The notes under the pieces are model-generated. The model was not told the origin of the DNA. It was given only the letters and a program-made list of their open reading frames with translations, and searched no databases. The translations under genes and the position numbers were made by a program. Below, one piece after another: positions 12,245-27,334 of a stretch of DNA of 64,000 nt. The DNA is from Bacilli bacterium (lineage in GTDB: Bacteria; Bacillota_I; Bacilli_A; RFN20; CAG-826): assembly GCA_024408655.1 (NCBI GenBank), contig JAKSUV010000004.1, positions 7,112 to 71,111 of the forward strand, read 5' to 3'. The stretch's first letter is position 1. The number at the start of each line of letters is the position of its first letter.

Positions 12245-12664
12245 ATGCCAACAATTAACCAATTAGTGAGAGAGGGTCGTAAATCCTCGACCTACAAGAG
12301 TAAAGCGCCAGCTTTAAATAAGCGCTGGAACTCATTAAAAAAGATTGAAAAGGACCAAAACGGTGCCCAAAAGCGGGGTGTTTGTACTCGGGTGGGAACC
12401 ATGACTCCGAAAAAGCCAAACTCAGCGTTACGGAAATACGCTCGTGTGCGTTTAAGTAACGGTTACGAAGTGACGGCCTATATCGGTGGGGAAGGTCATA
12501 ACCTACAAGAGCACTCCACAGTGATGATTCGGGGTGGCCGGGTGAAGGACTTGCCAGGTGTCCGTTATCATATTATTCGTGGAACGCTTGACTGTGCAGG
12601 TATTGAAGCACGTCGTCAAGGTCGGAGCCAATACGGCACGAAAAAACCCAAGAAATCTGAATAA
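12245..12664 (+). CDS. rpsL: 30S ribosomal protein S12
   Basis: [13 protein letters not shown]...[10 protein letters not shown], unmistakable S12. Confidence 0.97.
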
Positions 12665-12682
12665 TTAATGGAGGAATAGAAT

Positions 12683-13153
12683 ATGCCACGTAAAGGAAGA
12701 GTCGCCAAAAGAGACGTGTTACCAGATCCGGTCTATAATTCAAAATTAGTGACCCGGTTAATTAACCGCATTATGATCGATGGGAAACGCGGCACGGCGC
12801 AAAACATTTTATATGACGCGTTTAAAGTCGTCGAAAAGAAAACTGAAAAACCCGCCATGGATGTATTTGGTACAGCCTTAAATAACATCATGCCCGAAGT
12901 TGAATTAAAAGTGAGACGTATTGGGGCAGCTAACTATCAAGTGCCAATTGAAGTGACACCAGAACGTAAAATTGCGCTTGGTTTAAGATGGCTAGTGACC
13001 TATGCTCGTTTAAGAAACGAAAAGACGATGCAAGACCGTTTAGCCGCGGAAATTATTGACGCTGCTAATGGTACTGGTGCTTCGGTCAAGAAAAGAGAAG
13101 ATGTTCATAAGATGGCGGATGCGAACAAAGCTTACGCCCATTACCGTTGGTAA
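12683..13153 (+). CDS. rpsG: 30S ribosomal protein S7
   Basis: [28 protein letters not shown]... is canonical S7. Confidence 0.97.
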
Positions 13154-13165
13154 GAGGAATAGTTT

Positions 13166-15247
13166 ATGGCTCGTGAATTTGATTTAGCCCATACCCGTAA
13201 CATCGGGATTATGGCGCACATTGACGCTGGTAAAACAACGACCACTGAACGGATTCTTTATTTTACTGGTAAGATCCATAAGATTGGTGAAGTGCACGAT
13301 GGTGCCGCCACCATGGACTGGATGGAACAAGAACAAGAAAGAGGTATTACGATTACCTCCGCGGCAACGACTGCCACTTGGAATGGTAACCGGATTAATA
13401 TTATCGATACGCCAGGGCACGTCGACTTCACCGTTGAAGTTGAACGTTCCTTACGGGTGCTTGATGGTGCGGTCACCGTTCTTGATGGAAAAAACGGTGT
13501 TGAACCACAAACGGAAACTGTGTGGCGGCAAGGGACAAAATATGGTGTTCCGCGGATTGTCTTTGTTAATAAAATGGACGCGATTGGCGCCGACTTTGAT
13601 ATGTGCGTGGCGAGTTTACATGAACGTTTAGCCGCGAACGCTGAAGCCGTTCAATACCCAATTGGTGCCGAAAGTGAATTTAAAGGCGCGATTGATTTAA
13701 TCGAAAAGAAAGCCTACTTCTACGAAGGCGATAAAGACGAAAAGCCCGTTGAAAAGGAAATCCCTGAAGAATATAAAGAGAAGTGTGCTGCTTTACGGCA
13801 AAAGTTACTCGAAGCCTTAGCGGGTTTTGATGATGACTTTATGATGATGGTACTTGATGGTAAGGAACCTGATATTCCCACCATTAAGAAAGTCATTCGG
13901 AAAGCCGTTTTAACTGGTACATTCTTCCCGGTGTTCTGTGGTTCGGCGTATAAAAATAAGAATATTCAATTACTCCTGAACGGGGTTGTTGATTATTTAC
14001 CAAGCCCACTTGATATTCCACCGGCGAAAGGTATTAACCAAGCCGATGATAAAGAATATCTTTGTCATCCGGATGATAACGCTCCTTTAGCGGCGTTAGC
14101 CTTTAAGATTGCCACTGACCCATTCATTGGTCGACTCGCTTATGTTCGGGTTTACGCTGGTACTCTTAAGAGTGGTAGTTATGTGATGAATACCACTAAA
14201 GGCAGTAAAGAAAGAATTGCTCGTGTCGTTTTAATGCACTCCAACCACCGGCAAGAAGTTAGTGAACTCCATGCGGGTGATATTGGCGCGGTCGTTGGTT
14301 TAAAGAATACGACCACTGGTGATACTTTAGCCGATGAAAAACTTGATGTTGTCTTAGAGAAGATGGAATTCCCTGAGCCCGTGATTGAAGAAGCGGTGGA
14401 ACCAAAATCAAAAGCCGACCAAGATAAGATGGCGATTGCTTTAACGAAGTTAGCCGAAGAAGATCCAACCTTTAAAGTGCACACCAATAGCGAAACTGGT
14501 CAAACTATTATCGCCGGTGTTGGTGAATTACATCTTGATATTATTGTTGACCGGATGAGACGCGAATTTGGTGTCCAAGTAAACGTTGGTGCACCGCAAG
14601 TTGGGTATCGCGAAACGATTCGTGTACCCGCTGAATGCGAAGGTAAATACATTAAGCAATCGGGGGGTCGCGGTCAATATGGTCACGTCTGGATTAAGTT
14701 TGAACCAAATCCCGGCAAAGGCTTTGAATTTGTTGACGCGGTCGTTGGTGGTAGTGTTCCGCGGGAATACATTAAGCCAACTAACCAAGGCTTAGTTGAT
14801 GCGATGAACCGTGGCTTAATTGCGGGCTACCCCGTGATTGACGTGAAAGCTACCCTCTTTGATGGTAGTAGCCACGAAGTTGATAGTAGTGAAGCGGCCT
14901 ATAAGATTGCGGCGAGCTTAGCTTTAAAAGAAGCCGCGCGGAAATGTTCGCCCGTGATTCTTGAACCAATTATGAAAGTGGAAGTAACAGTCCCAGAACA
15001 ATATTATGGTGATGTCATTGGTGATATTGCTCGTCGGCGTGGTAACATGACGGGTGAAAGTCAACGGGGTAACGCGAAGGTGATTGACGCGGAAATCCCG
15101 TTAGCGGAAATGTTTGGTTACGTGACCGACTTACGGAGTTTCACGCAAGGTCGTGGTAACTACACCATGCAATTTGATCACTATGGCGAATGCCCAAGAT
15201 TCGTCCAAGACGAAATCATTAAGAAAAGCGGCATGAGTAACCGCTAA
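13166..15247 (+). CDS. fusA: Elongation factor G
   Basis: [28 protein letters not shown] and NKMD GTPase motifs. 693 aa. Confidence 0.97.
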
Positions 15248-15264
15248 TAAACACACAAACGAAA

Positions 15265-15290
15265 AGCACCCCTTTATGGGGTGTTTTTTG
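15265..15290 (+). terminator. Intrinsic terminator after fusA
   Basis: gcacccc-tttat-ggggtg followed by tttttt. Confidence 0.65.
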
Positions 15291-15304
15291 TTATAATATT
15301 AACA

Positions 15305-16906
15305 ATGAGTAACAAAATTAATCTTTTCCAGCGGATTAGTAATCGCGTGGGTCAGACTTATAGCGGTCAAAAGATTCCGCGGGGAACGAAATGGACTTAT
15401 TCAGTTTCCGGAACTTTTCGTGATGCCGCTTACGCTTTAATGTCGGCTTTCGTAATTGTTTACGCAAAAGAAGCGGGCATTATTGATATTGGTTCAGCAG
15501 CGATTTTAGGTGCGATCTCAGCGGTTTTAATTGCGTTTCGCGTCTTTGACGCGGTAAATGACCCAATCATGGGTGTCATTATTGAGCGGGTCCATTTTAA
15601 AACCGGTAAATATAAACCATGGATCTTTATCGGTAGCTTCATCTCGATGATTACCTATTTAGCCTTGTTCTGCGGGCCGAAAATCTTCCCTTGGTGTCGC
15701 GATTGGGTGTATGTTGGTTGGTTCGCGGTTTTCTATTTATTGTGGGATATTGGCTTTACGATGAACGACATTGCTTATTGGAGCATGCTCCCGAGTATGT
15801 CAAGCGTTGAAAAAGAACGGGCACAAGTGACTTCCATTGTTCTATTTTGTTGTAACATTGGTGAATTTGTCGTGACCGCTTTAACACCGTTTTTAACCCA
15901 AACGAATATTTTAGGCACCGATGCCTATTGGGTGATTTGTCTAATTGTTACCGGTTTATTTCTCATCAGTCAGACTTGTGTCTTTATCTTTTGTAAGGAG
16001 CGTTCACGAAATTTATTAGACCGGAAAGCCGAGAAGCCGGCAAGCGTGAAAGACTTATTTAATGTCTTAAAGAATAATTCGCAAGTGCGAACGATGATTA
16101 TCGTGATCTTGCTCTATTATATTTCCATTCATATTATTAACGGCTTAATGAATGATGTGCTTTGGATTACTGCTGGTTATAATGAAGCAAAACAATTACA
16201 GTTCTATTTCACTTTCGTTAATACCGCCGCGGTTTTATTACCACCCGTATTTATTCCGTTATTATTAAAGAAGTTTTCGTTAAGAAAAGTTGCTAATGTT
16301 GGCCTAGTGGGGATGTTAGCAACCCGGATTATCTTCTTATTCTATGGTTCACCAATCGGTAATAATTTAATTGCGCCACCGCAAATTCTTGGTGGAGGCT
16401 TAGGTGCGGGCTACGCGACTTGTTTCTGTATCCTTTCGGCTTTGATGGTGTTATCGCAAACCGTTGCCTATAACATTTTCTTAATCATGATGAGTAACAC
16501 GATTGAATATAACGAATATAAAACTGGCGACCGCCAAGAATCAATTATTTTCTCACTTCGCCCGTTTTCCACTAAACTCTCTTCTTCCATCAAAGAAGGG
16601 GTGGTGTTTGTCGCCTTATTAACGACGGGTATTAATAAAATTGAAGGCGAGATTGGTAAGATTAATGATTCAGATTTAGATCCAGCACAAAAAGAAGCGG
16701 CAATTACTGAAGTATTACGAGGCGTTACCGCTAGCCAAGTTTGGGGATTAAAACTAATCATGGTGATTATTCCATTACTTTGTATCATTGCTTGTTATTT
16801 ATTAATCCGTAAATATTACTTTATTGACGAAAAGTATTATGCCAAAATTTGTGATGAAATTGATAAGCGCAATAAAAAGGATTTAAAAGAAGCGAAGGCA
16901 AAATAA
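15305..16906 (+). CDS. Glycoside-pentoside-hexuronide (GPH):cation symporter family transporter, copy 1
   Basis: FDAVNDPIMGVIIERVHFKTGKYKPWI is the GPH/MelB-type signature, in a 12-TM-like profile. I chose ATG 15305 because the GTG at 15281 lies inside the fusA terminator. TATAAT at 15292-15297. Confidence 0.8.
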   Translation: MSNKINLFQRISNRVGQTYSGQKIPRGTKWTYSVSGTFRDAAYALMSAFVIVYAKEAGIIDIGSAAILGAISAVLIAFRVFDAVNDPIMGVIIERVHFKTGKYKPWIFIGSFISMITYLALFCGPKIFPWCRDWVYVGWFAVFYLLWDIGFTMNDIAYWSMLPSMSSVEKERAQVTSIVLFCCNIGEFVVTALTPFLTQTNILGTDAYWVICLIVTGLFLISQTCVFIFCKERSRNLLDRKAEKPASVKDLFNVLKNNSQVRTMIIVILLYYISIHIINGLMNDVLWITAGYNEAKQLQFYFTFVNTAAVLLPPVFIPLLLKKFSLRKVANVGLVGMLATRIIFLFYGSPIGNNLIAPPQILGGGLGAGYATCFCILSALMVLSQTVAYNIFLIMMSNTIEYNEYKTGDRQESIIFSLRPFSTKLSSSIKEGVVFVALLTTGINKIEGEIGKINDSDLDPAQKEAAITEVLRGVTASQVWGLKLIMVIIPLLCIIACYLLIRKYYFIDEKYYAKICDEIDKRNKKDLKEAKAK

Positions 16907-17799
16907 TGAACGCGATTGGGATTGATGTTGGCGGCACCAATATAAAAATTGGTGTTGTTTCTAAACAAGGGAAAGTCCTTAAACAAGACGCCTTTCGCGT
17001 TGATCCAAAAGAAGCTGGTTTAACCGCCTTAAAACGAATTGCTAAAATTATTAACCAATACCACAAACAATACGACATAAAAGGCGTTGGCGTCGGAATG
17101 CCAGGTATTCTTGACTTATCGACGGGTGAACTATTATATTCTTCAACAACTTTAAATTCGTGGCGCCATATTAATATCATTAAGACATTAACCAAATTAA
17201 CGAAATTAAAAGTAAAAATTAGTAACGACGCGAATGTAGCCGCTTTAGCGGAAGCGCGTTTTGGTAAATATAAAAACGTTAATTCGTTAATTTTATTAAC
17301 CCTTGGAACCGGTGTTGGTGGGGGAATTATTGTTAATAAACATTTAGTGCAGGGTAATAATGGTCAAGGAGCCGAACTTGGTCATATGTCGATTGACTAT
17401 CACGGACGAAAATGCGGTTGTGGACGGATTGGATGTCTAGAGGCCTATGTGAGCGCGAAGGCGCTTAAAAAAGACGCCGCTAAAGCGTTTAAAAAAGAAA
17501 TACCGGTTAAAGACATCTTCGCTTTATACGAAAAAGGTAATCCAATCGCTAAGAAAGTGATTAATGAATACATCACCTACTTAGGTGAAGGGATTTTAAA
17601 TTATTGTATTATCTTCCGTCCCGAAGTCATTTTATTATCGGGCGGAATTGCTAAGTCTGGCACTTTATTAACTAAGCCATTAAATACTTATTTAAAAAAG
17701 CATCATTACGGGATTAAAGGAACCGCTAAAGTGCTTGTTGATGTAGCTTCATTACAGTATGATAGTGGTATTATCGGAGCCGCCAGTTTAATTTTATAA
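16906..17799 (+). CDS. ROK-family sugar kinase
   Basis: IGIDVGGTNIKIG ATP-binding N-terminus and the CGCGRIGCLE zinc motif typical of ROK kinases. Confidence 0.85.
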   Translation: MNAIGIDVGGTNIKIGVVSKQGKVLKQDAFRVDPKEAGLTALKRIAKIINQYHKQYDIKGVGVGMPGILDLSTGELLYSSTTLNSWRHINIIKTLTKLTKLKVKISNDANVAALAEARFGKYKNVNSLILLTLGTGVGGGIIVNKHLVQGNNGQGAELGHMSIDYHGRKCGCGRIGCLEAYVSAKALKKDAAKAFKKEIPVKDIFALYEKGNPIAKKVINEYITYLGEGILNYCIIFRPEVILLSGGIAKSGTLLTKPLNTYLKKHHYGIKGTAKVLVDVASLQYDSGIIGAASLIL

Positions 17800-17811
17800 A
17801 AGGAGAGTTTT

Positions 17812-19380
17812 ATGTTTGAACGATTAACGAGCAAAATAGGTCGAACCTATAGCGATGAAATTATTCCAAAACGCACCAAGTGGATTTACACCACGAGTGG
17901 TCTAGGTCGCGACGCGGTGTACGCGATGGTGTCAGTTTTCTTAATCACTTTTATTACGAAGGCTGGTTACTTAGACGGTAACTATGAGGCGATGTTTGCC
18001 ACAATTTCTGGCATTATTATTGGTTACCGAATCTTTGACGCCGTGAACGATCCGTTTATGGGTGTCATTATTGAAAAATGTCATTTTAAAACCGGCAAAT
18101 ATAAGCCGTGGATATTCCTTGGCTCACTTACGAATACTATAACTGTCCTAGCGTTATTCTTAACGCCAGCATTCTGTACTTGGTGTCGAGGCTGGGGATT
18201 TGTGGCTTGGTTTGCGGTTTTCTATTTACTTTGGGGCATGACCTTTACTATGAACGATATTGCCTTCTGTTCAATGCTCCCGAGTATGTCGAGTAACGAA
18301 AAGCAAAGAACAAGAGTCACTTCCTTATTAATGATTTTTGAAAACGGTGGATCATTTATGATCTCTCTTATCGTGCCATTTATGGCGCAAACCTCGCTTG
18401 GTATTCAAAACGCCTATTGGGTTGCCGCGATTATTATTGGTTTCTTATTTGTGGTGGGACAAACCGCTTTATTCTTCTTCTGTCCTGAACATAAACGCAA
18501 TTTAGCCGCAGAAGCAAAAGCCGAACCACCGCGGTTCCGCGATATGATTCAAATCTTTAAAAAGAACCGCTTAGTGAGAATCATGGTCATTGTCATCTTT
18601 GTTTGGTTTATCTCCTTATTTAGCCTAGAAGGCTTAATGCAAGATGTCTTCCTTTTAGCCGTTGGCTATAACGCGGGCTTCCAATTAATGAGCTGGTTCA
18701 GTTTTGTGAAGATTGGGGCGATTGTTATCCCAATGTTATTTATGCCACGTATTTTAGATAAAGTTCCGAAGATGAAAGTCTTTAAGATTTGTATGAGCAC
18801 AATGATTGTCTCGTACATCCTCTTCTTTATCTATGGGGCACCTTTAGGTGGAACATCCTTTATCGCTCCAAGTTTTGTCTTTGGCACAGTGAGTCCAGCG
18901 TATGTCACACTTTTATTTATCATCGCGTTAGTGATGTATGTGGCGAATAGCTGTACCTATAACGTCATCTATCTCTTTATGGAGAACACCGTTGAATATA
19001 ACGAATATATTAGTGGTCGTCGGCAAGAATCAGTTATCTTCTCGATGCGTCCGTTTGCGACCAAGTTTGCAAGTAGTATCCAAATACTAATTACCGATGC
19101 GGCAATGTATTCAACTGGTTATATCGCGGTATCAAAAGCGATTAACGATAATAATAACTTATATCCAGATAATCCTGAGAAAGCCGCTGAGTTAAACGAA
19201 GAAGTCATTAGAAATGCCTTAAGCAATCCAGGTATGATTTATGGCATGCGTGTTTGGTGTGTATTAGTACCCGCCATCTTACTTGTCGTCGCTTTCTTCT
19301 TATTAGTGAAGTTCTATGATTTAAGTGACGCTAAATACACAAGTATTTGTAAAGAACTTAGTGAACGGAAGCGGGCCTAA
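17812..19380 (+). CDS. GPH:cation symporter family transporter, copy 2 (paralogue of 15305-16906)
   Basis: FDAVNDPFMGVIIEKCHFKTGKYKPWIF and FTMNDIAFCSMLPSMSSNEKQRTRVTS align closely with copy 1. SD aaaggag lies upstream. Confidence 0.8.
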   Translation: MFERLTSKIGRTYSDEIIPKRTKWIYTTSGLGRDAVYAMVSVFLITFITKAGYLDGNYEAMFATISGIIIGYRIFDAVNDPFMGVIIEKCHFKTGKYKPWIFLGSLTNTITVLALFLTPAFCTWCRGWGFVAWFAVFYLLWGMTFTMNDIAFCSMLPSMSSNEKQRTRVTSLLMIFENGGSFMISLIVPFMAQTSLGIQNAYWVAAIIIGFLFVVGQTALFFFCPEHKRNLAAEAKAEPPRFRDMIQIFKKNRLVRIMVIVIFVWFISLFSLEGLMQDVFLLAVGYNAGFQLMSWFSFVKIGAIVIPMLFMPRILDKVPKMKVFKICMSTMIVSYILFFIYGAPLGGTSFIAPSFVFGTVSPAYVTLLFIIALVMYVANSCTYNVIYLFMENTVEYNEYISGRRQESVIFSMRPFATKFASSIQILITDAAMYSTGYIAVSKAINDNNNLYPDNPEKAAELNEEVIRNALSNPGMIYGMRVWCVLVPAILLVVAFFLLVKFYDLSDAKYTSICKELSERKRA

Positions 19381-19382
19381 AT

Positions 19383-20249
19383 ATGTCCTATTTAGTTAAT
19401 ATTTTAAAACGGCTTAAATTTCCTAAGGATTGCCAAGCAGAAGTTTTAAGCGCCTACCAAAAAATTAAAAACAAGAAAGATATCGAAAAGATATTGAAAC
19501 AATATAAAAACGAAAATGTTGATTTTCCTAAACTTATTGCGAGTTGGCAGCCGATTCTTAAAAAATATAAGATCAATCAATATCTCGGTGACTTACTATT
19601 TTGTTTATTACTGTGCGAAAAACAAGAAGTCTTATATAAGAAACACCATTTATCAAACGCTTTATTTATTGAAACGATGATGGATCTTAAATATAAGGCG
19701 ATTGAATGTAAACTTGTTAAACATACCTGGGGATTATTTGTAACCCCGTGGTATGGTAGTTTCTTTAAATTAAAGTTGTTTTCTTTAGGAAGACTTCAAT
19801 TTGAAGTCTATACGTTCTTGGCCGATTACGATAATAAAAATGTTCACTTAAAAGCGGGGCAACCGTGTTTAAATGTTCATATCGCGCGAAATGGTGAACC
19901 ACTTGATATTAAGGAATGTAAGAAGTCAATCGCACGAGCGAAGAAATTCTTCCCACCGTATTTTAAGGATTACATTCTCTTTAGCTGTGATTCCTGGTTC
20001 TTATTTAATAAGACATTAGAATTTGTTGGGAAAGATTCTAATATTTATCGTTTCTCAAAACTCTTTAAATTAATTAAGATGATTCCGGTGAAAGACCAAA
20101 GCGAAGAGATGTGGCGTTTATTTGATGATGACACAAGTGACTTAAGTAAACTAAAAGCCAAAACAAGTCTCCAGAAAAAATATCTAAAATATTTAAAACA
20201 AGGCGGAAAAATCGGTTTAGGCCTTGGTTATTTTATTTATAAATTCTAA
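19383..20249 (+). CDS. Uncharacterised cytoplasmic protein co-transcribed with the transporters (possibly a DUF5596/acyltransferase-like family)
   Basis: 288-aa ORF starting 2 nt after the transporter stop. The family assignment is from memory only. Confidence 0.55.
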   Translation: MSYLVNILKRLKFPKDCQAEVLSAYQKIKNKKDIEKILKQYKNENVDFPKLIASWQPILKKYKINQYLGDLLFCLLLCEKQEVLYKKHHLSNALFIETMMDLKYKAIECKLVKHTWGLFVTPWYGSFFKLKLFSLGRLQFEVYTFLADYDNKNVHLKAGQPCLNVHIARNGEPLDIKECKKSIARAKKFFPPYFKDYILFSCDSWFLFNKTLEFVGKDSNIYRFSKLFKLIKMIPVKDQSEEMWRLFDDDTSDLSKLKAKTSLQKKYLKYLKQGGKIGLGLGYFIYKF

Positions 20250-21521
20250 TTATTTAGCGTGCTTAATCTCAATCAGTTGGCCATGCTTTAAGCGACTTTC
20301 TTCCGCGGCATAACACATCAAATGACTTTCAATGGACGAGGCTAAGGTTGTAGCGGCACTATCGTTTTTACCGGTCACGATTTGATAAAGTGCGTTGACT
20401 AGACCTTCATCGCCTCCGCCATGACCAAATGAACATTTGCTTTGGATTTTATTAAACGGAACGACTACAACTTTTTCGCCAAAGCGTTTAATTAAAATTT
20501 CGTGCCGCTCTTCGTCTAAATCAATTTCCCCGATGGTGCCATGGAATTTATAAATTCTACCGGGTTTCGCGGTAAAGCCAGTCATACATAAATTAGCGGT
20601 CACCCCGTTTTCAAAAGTCATAATGGTTTGTTGATGATCAACAACATCATTACGACAAGTAAAGACACACTCGCCATATTCATTACTTTCATACGCTTTC
20701 TTTAAATTCTTCTCTGTTAATGGATAAGTGGTGCAGGTGACATTAAAGGGCCAATCATTCTTGGGTGAACCCTTTTCTTTCCACATTTTGATATAAAGGG
20801 TTTTGGCACTATAAGGGCAAGTATCAATATATTTACAGGTCGCGCACCGTTTACTCGCACCTTTTGGTTGATGCTTCTTATTAAAGAAATCTAAGCGACC
20901 CATCGATGAAACATATTGGCAGCGGCTCTTCGCGTAATATTGTAATAAATCCATATCGTGACAACATTTGGCTAAGATCATTGGCGAAGTCTTTTTACTA
21001 TCATGCCAATTGCCCCGGACAAAACTATGGGCCTGGTGCCAATAGGCTACTTGTTCAAGGGCGTCAATATCCATTAATGTTCCAATCGTGCCTTGATCAA
21101 TTAAACGCGCGACTTCTAAGTACGCTGGCGCGTAGCGAAGAACGTGACAAACAATCACCTTTCTTTTGCACTTTTTCTGCGCCGCTAATAAACGGAAACA
21201 TTCACTCTTACTCGGGGTGATGGGTTTTTCAAGCAACACATGATAGCCAAGGCTCATCGCTTTAATCGCGTGCCGGACATGGTCTTGATCTTGGGTTGCG
21301 ACAATACAGACATCGGCTAATTTCTTTTTAAAGAAAGCCTTCTCGTCTTTAAATAATAAGTGCGATGGAATTTTAAATTCTTTCTTCGCTAACGTAAGCC
21401 GGACAGCCCGCGCATCACACACACTCACAACTTGGTATTGATTCGATTTATGCATTAAGGTGCCATAAGCATCAATCCCGCGGCTTCCTCCACCAATAAT
21501 TGCGACAGTTAGTTTTTTCAT
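20250..21521 (-). CDS. Gfo/Idh/MocA-family NAD(P)-dependent oxidoreductase with a Cys-rich insert
   Basis: Rossmann N-terminus KLTVAIIGGGSRG and EKP motif (HVLLEKP). Insert CATCKYIDTC at residues 226-235. Confidence 0.85.
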   Translation of the reverse strand: MKKLTVAIIGGGSRGIDAYGTLMHKSNQYQVVSVCDARAVRLTLAKKEFKIPSHLLFKDEKAFFKKKLADVCIVATQDQDHVRHAIKAMSLGYHVLLEKPITPSKSECFRLLAAQKKCKRKVIVCHVLRYAPAYLEVARLIDQGTIGTLMDIDALEQVAYWHQAHSFVRGNWHDSKKTSPMILAKCCHDMDLLQYYAKSRCQYVSSMGRLDFFNKKHQPKGASKRCATCKYIDTCPYSAKTLYIKMWKEKGSPKNDWPFNVTCTTYPLTEKNLKKAYESNEYGECVFTCRNDVVDHQQTIMTFENGVTANLCMTGFTAKPGRIYKFHGTIGEIDLDEERHEILIKRFGEKVVVVPFNKIQSKCSFGHGGGDEGLVNALYQIVTGKNDSAATTLASSIESHLMCYAAEESRLKHGQLIEIKHAK

Positions 21522-21536
21522 AATTATTTCTCCTTA

Positions 21537-22625
21537 TTAATATTTATTAATTAAACTATTCATTTGTTTGTATTGTTTTTCCATTTCGCTTACTAATTTA
21601 AGTTGAGTGCGAGCACGTACTAAGTTATGAGTAGAGTACTTAATATGGAAATAATGATCACCTTCAAGATAATCAGTTAAGAAACGCATCCCACATTCAA
21701 GTGTCATTATGATACTTCCTAACGCCAAATTCTCTTTTTCTTTCTTGGTAATTACTTTACCTAAGGTTTTTAGGAAACCTTTTAAAAAGATTTCGTATAA
21801 ATCAAGCCGGAAGTGTACTTTGCTTAAATCTTTTTCATCTTCTTTCGCGGAGTTGGTGCCAAAACGAATTGCATCACCAAAATCATAGCAAAGGGAACCT
21901 GGCATAATCGTGTCTAAGTCAACAACTGCGATAGGGCGATGTGTTTTTTCATCAAACAAGATATTGTTTAGTTTTGTATCGTTATGAGTAACGCGCGTTG
22001 GGATTATTTTCTTCTTAAGCATATTAACAATTAATGGACAATATTGTTGATGGTTAATAATAAATTTAATTTCTTTTTGGCAAGTCTTCGCGCGTTTCAT
22101 CTTATCGAGTTTAACCGCTTTTAAGAAAGCTTTATAACGAAGTTCGGTGTTATGGAAATTAGGGATAATTTCGTATAATTTATTCGCGTTAAACTTCGCT
22201 AAAATTTTGTAGAAATTCGCAAACGCCACCGCGGTGTAATAAAAATCTTGTGGTTTTTTAATGATTTGTAGACTTACCGTGTGGTCAATAAAATATAATA
22301 CTCGCGCGTAAAGATTCTCATATTTAACATAGGATTTTTTATCCTTAGTAAACACGATATTAATGGTTTCGCGTAGTGGATCACCACCTTGTTTAACAAT
22401 TGCTTGGCGATAAAACTTAGTAACAGCAACATAATTTTCCATTAAGTGCGAGACGGGATGAAAAATCTTATCGTTAATGATTTGTAAGATATACCGCTCT
22501 TTATTTTTGAAAGTTACTAAATAGGTATTATTAATATGACCTTCGCCATAAGGAACAGCCTTAATTACTTCGCTATTAATTGGATATAATTGAAAGATTT
22601 TCTTAATGTCGACGAGTTTAAGCAT
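21537..22625 (-). CDS. APH-fold sugar kinase resembling N-acetylhexosamine 1-kinase (NahK/LnpB)
   Basis: VTHNDTKLNNILFD (Brenner-type catalytic loop) and VVDLDTIMPGSLCYDFGDAIR. I chose ATG 22625 (362 aa) because a minus-strand TATAAT (22641-22636) lies inside the longer ORF extension. Confidence 0.7.
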   Translation of the reverse strand: MLKLVDIKKIFQLYPINSEVIKAVPYGEGHINNTYLVTFKNKERYILQIINDKIFHPVSHLMENYVAVTKFYRQAIVKQGGDPLRETINIVFTKDKKSYVKYENLYARVLYFIDHTVSLQIIKKPQDFYYTAVAFANFYKILAKFNANKLYEIIPNFHNTELRYKAFLKAVKLDKMKRAKTCQKEIKFIINHQQYCPLIVNMLKKKIIPTRVTHNDTKLNNILFDEKTHRPIAVVDLDTIMPGSLCYDFGDAIRFGTNSAKEDEKDLSKVHFRLDLYEIFLKGFLKTLGKVITKKEKENLALGSIIMTLECGMRFLTDYLEGDHYFHIKYSTHNLVRARTQLKLVSEMEKQYKQMNSLINKY

Positions 22626-22726
22626 ACCTTTTATTATTATATTAGTTTTAATCATAAAACGATTAAAAACATCATTTATTTCACCCACGCGTATTCAGAT
22701 AATAAAAAAGTGGTTTATAGAAAGTT

Positions 22727-22754
22727 ATTGATTTGTCTAGTTTTAATGTATAAT
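22727..22754 (+). promoter_or_regulatory. Putative promoter of the three-gene islet
   Basis: TTGATT (22727-22732), a 16-nt spacer, then TATAAT (22749-22754). Confidence 0.5.
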
Positions 22755-22785
22755 GTATCTATCAATGGAAAAAGGAAAATGAGTT

Positions 22786-22959
22786 ATGGCTACATCAAGC
22801 ATATTTGCTAGTTTTGATATTAAAGAGTCGAAGAAAGCCGAGTCTTTTGCTTTTGCTTTAAAATCTTCGATAGACGCAACCAAAAATGATAAGCAATTAG
22901 CCAATTGTGATTCAGTAAAGAATAAACAAGATTTATCCAAAATAATTAAAAAACTTTAA
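22786..22959 (+). CDS. 57-aa ORF, candidate antitoxin/partner of the downstream GNAT protein
   Basis: Below the ORF-track cutoff; read from the DNA as MATSSIFASFDIKESKKAESFAFALKSSIDATKNDKQLANCDSVKNKQDLSKIIKKL. A purine-rich stretch (aaaggaaaa) lies about 6 nt upstream. The ORF ends 10 nt before the next ATG. Any resemblance to the RHH start of DUF1778 antitoxins (K-E-S-x-K/R-A) is weak. Confidence 0.45.
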   Translation: MATSSIFASFDIKESKKAESFAFALKSSIDATKNDKQLANCDSVKNKQDLSKIIKKL

Positions 22960-22969
22960 GTCTTATTTT

Positions 22970-23560
22970 ATGGCTGAATATATAAGGGTTAATATCCTAG
23001 ATTTAATCGAGAACTTTGGCGAAGATAAGGTTAAGAAAGCCGTTTCTAGTTTTGCTTGTGAAAAAAACGCTGATGTTGAATTGTTTTTAAAAACAAACGC
23101 CATTGAATTTGCTAAAAAGAAAACATCTATTACATATTTAGTAATTAGAAAAGAGCCTGTTGCATTGGTTGGTTATTTTACCTTGATGCACAAATCAATT
23201 GTAGTAAAACCGGGGCCACATTTATCTTCTATGCTTATCCGCGCTATAGAAAAATGTGCTAAGTTAGATGAAACAAACCGTGTTTATAATGTTTCTGCAT
23301 TTTTAATCGCCCAATTTGCCAAAAATTCTAATATTAAAGATTTAGAAGCTCATTTTGGTGATAAATTAATGGGGTATGCTTTAAATACTCTTATAGAAAT
23401 TAGGAGAAACATAGGTGGGAGAGTCGTCTTTCTTGAGTGTGAAAAGAACAAAACAAAATTAGTTAATTTTTATCAAAAAGAAAATAATTTTTTTAGAATT
23501 TTTGGATCTAGGATAGATGAATCAGGCAAAACATATTTACAACTTTTAAGGCATTTTTAG
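22970..23560 (+). CDS. GNAT-fold protein resembling TacT/AtaT/KacT-type acetyltransferase toxins
   Basis: FACEKNADVELFLKTNAIEFAKKKTSITYLV...LVGYFTL matches the family N-terminal pattern F-x-[CS]-G-x3-L-x-x-[FW]-L...T-[FY]-[VL]-V...G-[FY]-[FY]-[ST]-L. The C-terminal VVFLECEKNKTKLVNFYQKENNF retains the conserved FY. The acetyl-CoA loop looks degenerate (AHFGDKL). Confidence 0.6.
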   Translation: MAEYIRVNILDLIENFGEDKVKKAVSSFACEKNADVELFLKTNAIEFAKKKTSITYLVIRKEPVALVGYFTLMHKSIVVKPGPHLSSMLIRAIEKCAKLDETNRVYNVSAFLIAQFAKNSNIKDLEAHFGDKLMGYALNTLIEIRRNIGGRVVFLECEKNKTKLVNFYQKENNFFRIFGSRIDESGKTYLQLLRHF

Positions 23561-23567
23561 AAGATTT

Positions 23568-23918
23568 ATGAATTATAAATGGAAAAAAGAATTTGAAGAA
23601 ATAAAAGAAACTAGTATTCTCAGTTGTTTTAAAACTAATGCAGATGGGGTAGATGTGATGGCAATCATATCTATATCGCCTGTAATTGATGAGCTTAACA
23701 AAAAACGTATTATAAATCTCAGTATATATTTTAAAGCCGGAAGTGTTACCAAAGGTACATATAGATGGGTAGTATTAGATATCTTAGATTTAAGTAAGCA
23801 ATATAGCGCTCATTATAAAACAGAGTTTTCTCCATATTGTCTCTTAGAAAGCTACTATGTTCGTAGGTTTCCTAAACTAACTATTTTGTTTCATGGGACA
23901 TGCGCATATATTGACTAG
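23568..23918 (+). CDS. Hypothetical 116-aa protein, third gene of the islet
   Basis: ORF 7 nt after the GNAT stop. Very AT-rich. No recognisable motif. Confidence 0.5.
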   Translation: MNYKWKKEFEEIKETSILSCFKTNADGVDVMAIISISPVIDELNKKRIINLSIYFKAGSVTKGTYRWVVLDILDLSKQYSAHYKTEFSPYCLLESYYVRRFPKLTILFHGTCAYID

Positions 23919-23949
23919 ATAACAACAATTAAATTTGATGAAAAAAAGT

Positions 23950-23978
23950 TTGCAATTAACAATAACTTGCTATAAGAT
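23950..23978 (+). promoter_or_regulatory. Putative tuf promoter
   Basis: TTGCAA (23950-23955), a 17-nt spacer, then TAAGAT (23973-23978). Strong SD aagaggag before ATG 24027. Confidence 0.4.
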
Positions 23979-24026
23979 ATAACACGCTACGAATTTAGCA
24001 TTCGAAGAGAAAAGAGGAGATTTTTT

Positions 24027-25211
24027 ATGGCAAAAGAGAAATTTGACAGAAGTAAAGTCCACGTTAACATTGGTACGATTGGCCACGTTGACCATGGTAA
24101 AACCACTTTAACTGCGGCAATTACTAAAGTCCTTTCGGCAAAAGGCGGTGCGGTCGCGAAAGCGTACAACGAAATCGATGCAGCGCCCGAAGAGAAGGAA
24201 CGTGGTATTACGATTAATACTGCCCACATTGAATACTCAACTGCGAAGCGTCACTACGCTCACGTTGACTGCCCGGGGCACGCTGACTACGTTAAGAACA
24301 TGATTACTGGTGCAGCGCAAATGGATGGAGCGATCTTAGTGGTTGCGGGTACCGATGGCGTCATGCCACAAACGCGTGAACACATCTTACTTGCTCGCCA
24401 AGTTGGTGTTCCTTATATTTGTGTCTTCATCAACAAAGTTGACTTAGTTGACGACAAAGAATTACTCGACTTAGTCGAGATGGAAGTCCGTGACTTACTC
24501 ACTTCCTATGGTTTCCCAGGTGATAAAGTTCCTGTGATCCGTGGTAGTGCGAGAAAAGCCCTTGATGGCGACGCGGAAGCGGCTAAACAAATCGAAGCGC
24601 TTATGGATGCGGTTGATGCTAACATCCCTGATCCAGTGCGTGATGTTGATAAACCATTCTTACTCCCAATCGAAGACGTTATGACCATTTCTGGTCGTGG
24701 TACCGTTGTCACTGGTCGGGTCGAACGCGGCAAATGCAACCTCAACGACGAAATGGAAATCGTTGGTATTAAACCAACCCAAAAGACCGTTGTTACTGGT
24801 CTAGAAATGTTCCGGAAGACCCTTGAGTACGCTCAAGCGGGTGATAACGTTGGTGTCCTCCTTAGAGGTATCAACCGTGATCAAGTTATCCGTGGTCAAG
24901 TCTTAGCGAAACCGGGAACAATCGTTCCTCACGTTAAGTTCACTGCGACTGTCTACGTCTTAAAGAAAGAAGAAGGTGGCCGTCATACTGCGTTCTTAAG
25001 TAACTATCGTCCACAATTCTATTTCCGTACGACCGATATTACTGGTGTTATTACTCTTCCTGCTGATGTGAAGATGGTTATGCCTGGTGATAACGTGGAA
25101 CTCACCATCGAACTCATTCACCCAATCGCGATTGAAAAGGGAACTAAGTTCTCCATCCGTGAAGGTGGCCGGACCGTTGGTGCGGGTACCGTGAGTGAAA
25201 TTCTTAAGTAA
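24027..25211 (+). CDS. tuf: Elongation factor Tu
   Basis: [33 protein letters not shown]..., DCPGHADY and NKVD. Confidence 0.98.
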
Positions 25212-25369: not shown

Positions 25370-26845
25370 ATGAAAAATAAAAAGTACTTATTTGCATTAC
25401 CAATCTTTGCGTTAGCAGGTTCGGGTGCGTTAGTGGGATGCGGTGGAGAATCCTCTAAACTTTTGTTTGAAAGTAAAGTAGAAGTTGAAAACACTGGTCG
25501 TGATGACATATCAATTACCATAGATAACTCTTCTGTCTACAGCAACACGGACTATAAAGCAACAGTGACATTAACTCAAAGCCCAAAAACCGGTGCTGGA
25601 ATCAAAGAATATCGTGGACTGCCGTCAAAAGAAGATGAAGTTTTTAGTATAAGTTACGAAACTAAAGACGGCAAATATGTAGACATAGAAAAAGCGCAAT
25701 ACACATATGAAATTAATCCCAATGACCGTAGGATTGGGTATATAACAATTAAGAAAGATGTCGTTAATGGTCTTGCTACAAAAAAAGATATTGGTAAGAC
25801 AATCTGGATATCTTTTGATGGCGCGTTACCGACGCTTAGATATAATGTTGGAGTCGAGTTAGATAGTAGTCAGTCATATACCGAGGATGATTATAAATTT
25901 ACTATGGAAGAAGGCACAACCACAATTGAGGCCGGAGCAGAATATAGAACTAAAATTGTGTTAGATTCCAAAACCGAGTTCCCAGCTCCGATTTTGAAAT
26001 TGCCGACAACTGATGCAGAAAATAACGTTTCTGTTTATGTTGGCAATGAGAAAATTGATTATGTTGATGATTGGACCTGGAGTGCTAATGCATTTGTCGC
26101 AAATTTTGGCATTGAAGAGGACATTGCTTGTGGAAATGTAAGGATTGTTGTAAAGTTGAACGCGGAGTCATTTGGGTTGTTTGGCATTAAGGCCGTGGCT
26201 GATGATGATTTTAAAGGAGAAATCACTTTCTCAAATTCTCAAATCGAAAAAGATAATGAGAACTTTAACGCTAATATCAACTTAACCCAAAAGGAAGGGA
26301 TTAAACCGAGCGAACGGCGTCAGTTAACCGCTCCTGATAAAATAGCGGTTAAATACAAGAATAATCAAGGAAGCATAGTTACTTTAAACTCCAAGAGTGA
26401 TTATTCGTACACACTTAATCCTGACAGAATGAGCGCAAAATTTACATTGATGTCGGCTGCTATTGCAACAATAAAAGCAGAAATTGCTACAGAAGACATT
26501 GACAAATTTCTTCTTGTTGATTTTGGCAAATTGCCAAATTATCAATGTTCGGTATCTGCCGAAGCTAAAGATGTTGGCCCTGAATATCACATTAGTCTTA
26601 CTACACCGTTTGCTGATATCGGTAATGAATATAATAGCGGATTGACCTTGTCGGCCAAAACAGATGATAAAGATTTTCCTTCAACTTTTGAACATGGTGA
26701 GATTTATGTTGATGAAGTAAAAATATCAACCAAAAACATTACATGGAGGCTTATGGAAGATAAGAATTCTGCTAAAATAGTAATTCCAGGCAATTACGTG
26801 ACTGGTGATATTCGGATAGTAGTTCCACTTGTAGATCAACAATAA
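25370..26845 (+). CDS. Lipoprotein of unknown function with (A-B)x2 internal duplication
   Basis: Signal peptide with lipobox (ALVGCGG). Two A modules (ATVTLTQSPK...YTYEINPNDR / ANINLTQKEG...YSYTLNPDRM). Two B modules ending GNVRIVVKL / GDIRIVVPL. Confidence 0.75.
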   Translation: MKNKKYLFALPIFALAGSGALVGCGGESSKLLFESKVEVENTGRDDISITIDNSSVYSNTDYKATVTLTQSPKTGAGIKEYRGLPSKEDEVFSISYETKDGKYVDIEKAQYTYEINPNDRRIGYITIKKDVVNGLATKKDIGKTIWISFDGALPTLRYNVGVELDSSQSYTEDDYKFTMEEGTTTIEAGAEYRTKIVLDSKTEFPAPILKLPTTDAENNVSVYVGNEKIDYVDDWTWSANAFVANFGIEEDIACGNVRIVVKLNAESFGLFGIKAVADDDFKGEITFSNSQIEKDNENFNANINLTQKEGIKPSERRQLTAPDKIAVKYKNNQGSIVTLNSKSDYSYTLNPDRMSAKFTLMSAAIATIKAEIATEDIDKFLLVDFGKLPNYQCSVSAEAKDVGPEYHISLTTPFADIGNEYNSGLTLSAKTDDKDFPSTFEHGEIYVDEVKISTKNITWRLMEDKNSAKIVIPGNYVTGDIRIVVPLVDQQ

Positions 26846-26895: not shown

Positions 26896-26950
26896 TATTA
26901 TGAGAAGTGCAAGATTGCAGCAATTCTATTTAACGGGTTATAATATCTTC

Positions 26951-27334
26951 ATGCCAAACTATGAATTAAATGTAACTGTTATTAAGATACTAGAGACAGT
27001 TTATGAATTAAATGAAAAGAATTATTATCCGAATGCTCATGGAGTGTTAAAGATAGTAAATGGTGTCATTGATGAAGAAACTGCTCCTTTTATTAAATTA
27101 AAAACGTTCTCCACTTTAACTAGTGTTAAAGGTCGTCAGTTAGCGAGCGATATTCATCAACTTGTGCGATATGGTTATTTATCCTATCAACATAATAAGA
27201 GCGATGATCAAATGTATTTAAGAATTACCTTTAAGGGTGAAAGTAATCTTGAAGATTATTTAAAACATCACCGCGTTAGTTTTAAAAAAGCGAATAAAAA
27301 GAAAGCAGAAAAAACCATTGCGTTAATTAAATAA
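26951..27334 (+). CDS. Small stand-alone winged-helix protein resembling the RecQ RQC domain
   Basis: The pattern ...GVLKIVNGV.....FIKLKTFSTL......LASDIHQLVRYGYLSYQ...MYLRITFKG parallels RQC winged-helix spacing. I chose ATG 26951 because TTGCAG-18-TATAAT (26915-26944) lies inside the longer ORF. Confidence 0.45.
   Translation: MPNYELNVTVIKILETVYELNEKNYYPNAHGVLKIVNGVIDEETAPFIKLKTFSTLTSVKGRQLASDIHQLVRYGYLSYQHNKSDDQMYLRITFKGESNLEDYLKHHRVSFKKANKKKAEKTIALIK

Follow-up and report, generated by a model that had tools for sequence, protein, structure and literature searches.

The 64,000-nucleotide stretch of Bacilli bacterium contig JAKSUV010000004.1 that was analyzed here (the window; assembly GCA_024408655.1, positions 7,112 to 71,111) carries two short adjoining genes, named A and B below, which are one copy of a large, uncharacterised, mobile two-gene module. 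The pair is most likely, although by no means certainly, a toxin-antitoxin (TA) system in which B, an acetyltransferase of the GNAT superfamily, would acetylate charged tRNA while its small partner A would silence B. A third open reading frame (ORF), C, follows closely. The three genes, with lengths in amino acids (aa), are as follows.

22786-22959, + strand: gene A, the 57-aa small partner and candidate antitoxin, starting MATSSIF.
22970-23560, + strand: gene B, a 196-aa GNAT acetyltransferase of the TacT/AtaT-like branch and candidate toxin.
23568-23918, + strand: ORF C, 116 aa, adjacent to the conserved A-B module and outside it.

At the loci examined first, an ORF of 57-67 aa starting MATSSIF preceded every B homolog. 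Two surveys extend this observation, one of 80 loci from species-representative genomes and one of 54 viral contigs carrying B. A hidden Markov model (HMM) of the A family matched 78 of the 80 genome loci, and since both misses lacked upstream DNA the pairing held in all 78 informative cases. The A gene was found upstream of B on the same strand, overlapping it by 4 nucleotides (nt) in 37 genome loci and by 8 nt in 14. Among the viral contigs the HMM matched 41 of 54, and 12 of the other 13 had an upstream small ORF starting MAT[KSI][ST]F, which brings the count to 53 of 54. A also preceded B in each of nine metagenome loci, and when three A clusters were picked only for their long contigs, each was then followed by a B homolog (approximately 44% identity). 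Conservation of the 57-aa ORF, which a preliminary description of this DNA had put forward as a point to be checked, is therefore established: it is a translationally coupled partner of B.

The same pair was found on phages, satellites and plasmids. It corresponds to gp74/gp75 of the C. difficile phage phiCD119 and occurs also in phiC2, phiMMP01/03, phiCDHM19 and phiCD418, in the C. botulinum phages c-st and D-1873, in streptococcal satellite phages and in 46 Acinetobacter plasmid records. In phiCD119 (L018, 47694-53230) gp74/gp75 lie in the right-end accessory region, where they adjoin the anti-repressor Ant and a gene with a DUF4868 (KwaB-like) domain. Hosts of the pair include Lachnospiraceae, Oscillospiraceae, Ruminococcus, Selenomonas and Erysipelothrix, together with Treponema, Synergistaceae, Flexilinea, Bacteroidales and Acinetobacter, a distribution that is patchy across phyla. 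Two diverged copies were present in each of three genomes: the Butyrivibrio metagenome-assembled genome JAMPEU01 (L032 and L059), Lachnospiraceae MI.11_2 (L031 and L060) and Clostridia bacterium C2 (L041 and L089). Neighbours of A-B in loci other than the window included RelE/HTH (helix-turn-helix), AbiGi/AbiGii, PIN and MNT-like nucleotidyltransferase genes, as well as a serine recombinase, insertion sequence (IS) transposases, OLD-like ATPases and a Dam-like methylase.

The genes in the window are also poor in GC, as had been estimated by eye in the preliminary description and is now borne out by computation. GC content of A, B and C was 29.3-30.5% and GC at third codon positions (GC3) was 23-24%, compared with means of 37.7 +/- 4.0% and 34 +/- 5% over the 52 genes of the window, among which A, B and C take ranks 1, 3 and 4 for lowest GC. 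Low GC, a patchy spread over phyla and occurrence on phages, plasmids and satellites make the module look horizontally mobile, in line with the acquisition first proposed for it. The earlier remark that no integrase or transposase flanks the islet also held, none being present among the genes neighbouring A-B-C.

Comparison of B with known structures placed it in the TacT/AtaT-like branch of the GNAT superfamily. A database search with B returned 52 relatives of 193-203 aa, a few of them named ('GNAT family acetyltransferase'); the identical entry belongs to a 'Bacilli bacterium' metagenome-assembled genome. The AlphaFold2 model of B, built with the alignment of these relatives, had a pLDDT of 93.9 and a pTM of 0.88 and contained the complete GNAT topology with two additions, an N-terminal strand with two helices and a helix inserted between beta-3 and beta-4. 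When this model was compared with 350,542 PDB chains using Foldseek, tRNA-acetylating TA toxins (TacT, TacT1-3, AtaT, AtaT2, KacT, GmvT and 7byy) filled the first 20 places and 33 of the first 35, with E values from 2.3e-9 to 4e-7 and, for the top 20, TM-scores on the target of 0.66-0.73. Generic GNATs (PaiA, Ard1) ranked below the toxins, and a Foldseek search against viral models returned generic GNATs only, with weaker scores.

Profile comparison gave the same placement. As a toxin reference we used six genuine DUF1778-GNAT plasmid pairs, one of them a 99% match to Salmonella TacT. Aligned to these six DUF1778-linked toxins with hhalign, the B family reached a probability of 95.6% (E = 1.3e-8) over 135 collinear columns, and the control, in which the B-family profile was aligned to a generic RimJ-like GNAT, gave a probability of 0.2%. 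The alignment brought together the FxC, FL, TY(L)V and GYF motifs and strand beta-4, and set G130 against the invariant loop Gly and Y168 against the invariant catalytic Tyr of the toxins. The TacT/AtaT likeness of B that had been read from motifs thus stands, on the Foldseek ranking, the profile-profile comparison and the generic-GNAT negative control, and the motifs quoted for it are all present (F28-A-C30...F39-L40, T55-Y-L-V, V67-G-Y-F-T-L, N166-F-Y168 and AHFGDKL at 127-133). Seven residues, K75, L112, I113, Q115, L155, C157 and Y168, were conserved in 100% of 81 B-family members. B also matched phrog_1758 ('acetyltransferase') over residues 18-184 (E = 1.1e-33). None of 24 B relatives reached a GNAT model in a Pfam scan, and the B profile run against PDB sequences gave N-terminal matches to GmvT, TacT3 and AtaT2 only, which were non-significant (E = 0.3-1.2). 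We do not file B in the DUF1778-linked toxin family itself, since the defining DUF1778 partner was looked for and was not found.

A is a member of a conserved family and not a chance ORF. A profile built from six A proteins recovered 2,433 clusters of 57-99 aa, all of them unnamed and without Pfam domains; the partner of B is a large, well-conserved family and not divergent noise. The phiCD119 protein gp74 belongs to this family and matches phrog_3291 (unknown function; E = 2e-39), from which the window A protein is too divergent to be matched. The AlphaFold2 monomer model of A was of moderate confidence (pLDDT 73), showing an unstructured N-terminus and then two helices, and gave no PDB match in Foldseek. 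The preliminary description had proposed a divergent, miniaturised type II TA module whose first gene had a faint ribbon-helix-helix (RHH)-like start. The two-gene, TA-like part of that proposal stood. The RHH part did not: hhalign between the A and DUF1778 families gave a probability of 0.5%, and six A-family members had no Pfam match at E <= 10, DUF4065 and HTH/Xre models included. With no kinship to DUF1778 or a Pfam family detectable for A, a miniaturised RHH protein is unsupported, and as judged from these profiles A is a family separate from the DUF1778/RHH antitoxins.

The most conserved part of either protein, A or B, is the N-terminus of A. In 98 unique A sequences (loci L030-L163) from several phyla, phages and plasmids, residues 1-6 (M-A-T-x-S-I/F; 22786-22806 in the window) had the highest information content in A, 4.0-4.3 bits. 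The codons of these residues differ by synonymous changes, which places the constraint at the protein level. The N-termini of DUF1778 antitoxins are, in contrast, variable.

The extent of the mobile unit was given by L007, a metagenome locus that is the closest relative of the window module and was compared with window positions 22000-24200. The features of this part are listed below.

22697-23559, + strand: shared mobile block comprising promoter, A and B, from nucleotide alignment to L007.
22728-22733 and 22749-22754, + strand: promoter-like TTGATT-15 nt-TATAAT, positions and spacer computed.
22727-22766, no strand assigned: inverted repeat ATTGAT...ATCAAT flanking the -10 element, a candidate operator.
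22773-22777, + strand: Shine-Dalgarno-like AAGGA, 8 nt before the ATG of A, as read from the sequence.

The shared block was the only part of the compared region that aligned to L007 (84% nt identity, 868 columns). It starts 89 nt before the ATG of A and ends at the stop codon of B, and the encoded proteins are 88% (B) and 91% (A) identical. The ratio of non-synonymous to synonymous substitution rates (dN/dS) between the window and this 84%-identical copy was 0.053 for B and 0.11 for A, values that point to purifying selection in A and B alike. From promoter to ATG (22721-22785, against 4313-4377 in L007) the two copies were almost 100% identical, compared with 84% for the coding DNA, and the ATTGAT/ATCAAT repeat was kept, although its 6-nt arm is short enough to arise by chance. 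This near-identity, together with the short inverted repeat, suggests regulatory constraint. Inspection of 76 upstream regions by eye revealed no operator shared across the family. Where the window has AAGGA, homologous loci have AGGAGG. The promoter-like element noted in the preliminary description is present, with a spacer of 15 nt and not the 16 nt stated there; a consensus scan had missed it because the scan was limited to spacers of 16-18 nt. A bicistronic pair with the small gene first, translational coupling, a patchy distribution linked to mobile elements and multiple copies per genome are generic traits of type II TA systems that A-B shows, and the pairing, context, copy number, selection and conserved promoter seen here are typical of type II TA or abortive-defence modules.

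By analogy with TacT, AtaT, KacT and GmvT, B would, with acetyl-CoA as donor, acetylate aminoacyl-tRNA on its alpha-amino group, and this modification would stop translation. A, whose translation comes first and is coupled to that of B, would bind B and keep it inactive. The role of the pair on phages, plasmids, satellites and genomic islands would be either maintenance of the element or abortive defence. The comparisons establish the strict A-B pairing and its mobility, the fold of B and its kinship to the toxin branch, the conserved catalytic Tyr and the selection on both genes; toxicity of B, its neutralisation by A and the aminoacyl-tRNA target are inferred. Direct binding of A to B is consistent with an analysis of isoelectric point (pI) and charge over the two families (loci L030-L109), in which the net charges of cognate A and B proteins were anticorrelated (rho = -0.53, p = 9e-7, uncorrected for phylogeny).

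Several results weigh against a tRNA-acetylating toxin and its antitoxin. The canonical GNAT toxins are basic (pI 8.7-9.6) and their antitoxins mostly acidic, whereas the B family is mostly acidic (median pI 5.5) and the A family mostly basic (median 9.2), and with this reversal the analogy to tRNA-binding toxins becomes weaker for the family as a whole. Most of the acidity resides in the first 27 residues of B, an extra segment, and the window pair is atypical in that both of its proteins are basic, B having a pI of 9.4 like the canonical toxins. The acetyl-CoA pyrophosphate loop Q/RxxGxG/A, rightly called degenerate in the preliminary description, is reduced to one conserved Gly, G130 (97%), at the start of helix alpha-3; the loop has approximately 10 residues, is longer than in the toxins and varies apart from that Gly. 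The window B protein further departs from its family at two sites conserved at 95% or more (G117A and Q145R). No significant match to B was found in Pfam, where the best was Acetyltransf_1 at E = 0.11, or in NCBIfam or PADLOC, and a PDB sequence search with B alone returned nothing. The A family for its part shows the absence of any detectable DUF1778 relation described above, and no DNA-binding domain was detected in A by Pfam or Foldseek. Finally, in the survey of Bikmetov et al. (PMC9177977), it is cautioned that GNATs outside the DUF1778-linked clade may pair with antitoxins yet to be identified or may have other physiological roles.

It is the conserved N-terminus of A and the inverted charges that keep two other accounts of the pair alive. 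B may be a non-toxic accessory acetyltransferase whose target is a small molecule, a component of a phage or a protein of the host, for instance in counter-defence or in metabolite or antibiotic modification. A would then only regulate or chaperone B, and the pair would have neither an addictive nor an abortive role. The functional diversity of GNATs, the plain label 'acetyltransferase' that NCBI and PHROGs give to B, the acidity of most B proteins, unlike that of tRNA-binding toxins, and the location of B in accessory regions of phages, which also house counter-defence genes, would all suit such a role. We nevertheless consider it unlikely. Ordinary enzymes are not usually tied so strictly to a tiny co-translated partner (134 loci), B resembles the toxin branch specifically, and not generic GNATs, in both structure and profile, and RelE, PIN and AbiG systems are co-localised with the pair, which also occurs in multiple diverged copies per genome. 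The other account makes A the substrate or pseudo-substrate of B, its Met-processed N-terminus (Ala-Thr-Ser-Ser-Ile) being either the acetyl acceptor or a plug of the acceptor site. B could then be a dedicated N-alpha-acetyltransferase for A, as RimI or NatA are for their substrates; A could inhibit B through its alpha-amine and not through a C-terminal helix, the part through which DUF1778 antitoxins act; or, at the extreme, A could be a small toxic protein and B the 'antitoxin' that modifies it, as in type VII TA systems. With Ala as the second residue, Met tends to be removed by methionine aminopeptidase (MetAP), and N-terminal Ala, Ser and Thr are classic substrates of N-alpha-acetylation by NatA and RimI/J. 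The start of A suits this chemistry, and its six most informative residues with their synonymously varying codons, the variable N-termini of DUF1778 antitoxins, the basic A and mostly acidic B proteins, and the presence of N-terminal acetyltransferases such as Ard1 among the Foldseek matches of B all point in the same direction. On the other side, the TA toxins beat these acetyltransferases by approximately three orders of magnitude in Foldseek E value, a small overlapping first gene and a TA/defence-island context suit a classical type II system equally well, and a protease degron or a ribbon strand would be another possible reason for the conserved N-terminus of A. We regard a substrate or pseudo-substrate role for A as improbable.

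Far less probable is a three-component toxin or defence cassette of A, B and C, which the preliminary description had offered as an alternative. It would be suited by the 7-nt gap between B and C and by the GC of C, as low as that of A and B, and no terminator was predicted between the two genes or anywhere else in 22500-24100. The C-family HMM, however, found nothing in the 134 other B loci (80 genome and 54 viral). In L007 the 88%-identical B is followed not by C but by a convergent 514-aa gene, with nucleotide homology stopping at the B stop codon. The absence of C from other B loci and this end point together refute the cassette: C may be co-transcribed with A-B and is a separate, unrelated neighbouring gene.

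C is not the orphan it was first taken for. A word-indexed search returned only C itself, whereas exhaustive searching with HMMER recovered six relatives along the full length (112-124 aa, 26-35% identity), which rules out a pure ORFan. With six full-length relatives, C belongs to a real but sparse family. These relatives were never near A or B and adjoined unrelated genes. Three of them (L027, L028, L029) are found just downstream of large surface-like or leucine-rich repeat (LRR) proteins, or have an OLD-like ATPase and a putative nuclease as neighbours, and one LRR surface protein comes with a SecB-like gene. This context raises the idea that the C family may be an immunity-type or defence-island small protein. 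In PADLOC-DB 2.0 there was no match for A, B or C at E <= 1, and Pfam and NCBIfam likewise gave no significant match for any of the three.

The islet stands within a split str operon (12245-25211), in which rpsL, rpsG and fusA are found at 12245-15247 and tuf only at 24027. Approximately 8.8 kb of sugar-utilisation genes and the islet lie between fusA and tuf. The genes preceding the islet (to 22688) encode two major facilitator superfamily (MFS) transporters, a ROK kinase, an NAT_N/GNAT_C N-acyltransferase, a GFO-type oxidoreductase and an APH-like kinase. An exact-protein look-up with this upstream kinase, made in search of an empty site or synteny, returned no match, and a metagenome scan with it gave relatives of at most 60% identity only, with neither tuf nor an oxidoreductase nearby. 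The three ORFs are spaced as tightly as first described, with gaps of 10 nt between A and B and 7 nt between B and C, all on the same strand. No Rfam family was found in 22400-24200. A 16-nt inverted repeat (15/16 complementary; 22715-22730 and 23960-23975) encloses the whole A-B-C islet, its right arm overlapping a tuf promoter-like TTGCAA...TGCTATAAG. As a terminal inverted repeat (TIR) it was borderline; since 5 of 100 shuffles equalled it and it is missing from L007, it is probably due to chance. Beyond tuf, a 491-aa lipoprotein-like ORF (25370-26845) and a 144-aa ORF (26900-27334) both lack a Pfam match. The latter is as GC-poor as the islet (GC 29.9%, GC3 24%) and may likewise have been acquired.

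For the window itself the practical yield is modest: it holds a two-gene mobile insertion and an unrelated small gene between a sugar-utilisation cluster and tuf. The wider interest is in the family. B represents a sister branch of the GNAT toxins that is abundant in gut Bacillota, always coupled to a different, uncharacterised small protein, and present also in temperate phages of C. difficile and the other elements named above. If the pair is a TA or abortive-defence module, A would represent a new antitoxin family, and the mobile elements of clinical relevance that carry it would offer many testable cases. Should the invariant N-terminus of A prove to be the control point, an acetyltransferase toxin would be regulated in a new way, one not seen in the DUF1778 antitoxins, and the pair would stand as a new GNAT module, very widespread in gut Bacillota, in their phages and on Acinetobacter plasmids. 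Literature searches returned no paper describing the A-B pair, although their coverage was incomplete and this absence is not proof.

Among known systems, the closest are the GNAT/DUF1778 type II TA pairs (TacAT, AtaRT, KacAT, ItaRT, GmvAT). They share with A-B the GNAT fold, their toxins being the best structural neighbours of B, and the N-terminal signature FxC...FL...TY(L)V...GYF, which aligns in B. The catalytic Tyr at the end of helix alpha-4 (TacT Y140, AtaT Y144, KacT Y145) corresponds to B Y168, and the Gly at the start of helix alpha-3 aligns with B G130. Both are bicistronic, with an overlapping small gene first, and both are carried on mobile elements. They differ in the partner, which in A-B is a protein of 57-65 aa in which DUF1778/RHH homology is undetectable and the MATSS start is invariant, and in B itself, which has an extra acidic N-terminal segment of approximately 25 residues and the beta-3/beta-4 insertion, a degenerate Q/RxxGxG/A loop, an acidic pI in most members and only 11-19% sequence identity to the toxins. 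The N-terminal acetyltransferases (RimI/RimJ/RimL, Ard1/NatA) likewise have a GNAT fold and acetylate alpha-amines, and their substrates, with Ala, Ser or Thr exposed after Met removal, resemble the MAT start of A. They fall well below the TA toxins in Foldseek (E approximately 2e-6 against 2e-9), and the RimJ-like GNAT had no profile match to B. The phage catalogue families phrog_1758 and phrog_3291 (for example phiCD119 gp75 and gp74) are matched by B and by the A-family protein gp74, respectively, and are listed without an assigned role.

A change of antitoxin family by a GNAT toxin would have precedents in the DUF4065 (Panacea)-GNAT pair VcaAT (PMC9177977) and in the GNAT-Xre pairs, the latter predicted earlier according to the passage of PMC3870246 that cites Makarova 2009. 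A differs from the partners in both, since neither a DUF4065 nor an HTH/Xre Pfam model matched A or five of its relatives at E <= 10. In the survey of Bikmetov et al. (2022, PMC9177977) a 'true TA clade' of GNAT toxins is linked with DUF1778 and one of its subclades with DUF4065, and homologs of GNAT toxins are nearly lacking in Firmicutes/Bacillota, whereas the B family is found mainly in Bacillota. The same study describes some bicistronic GNATs outside the true TA clade with short, divergent upstream ORFs of unknown role, and this is the description that the A-B pair fits.

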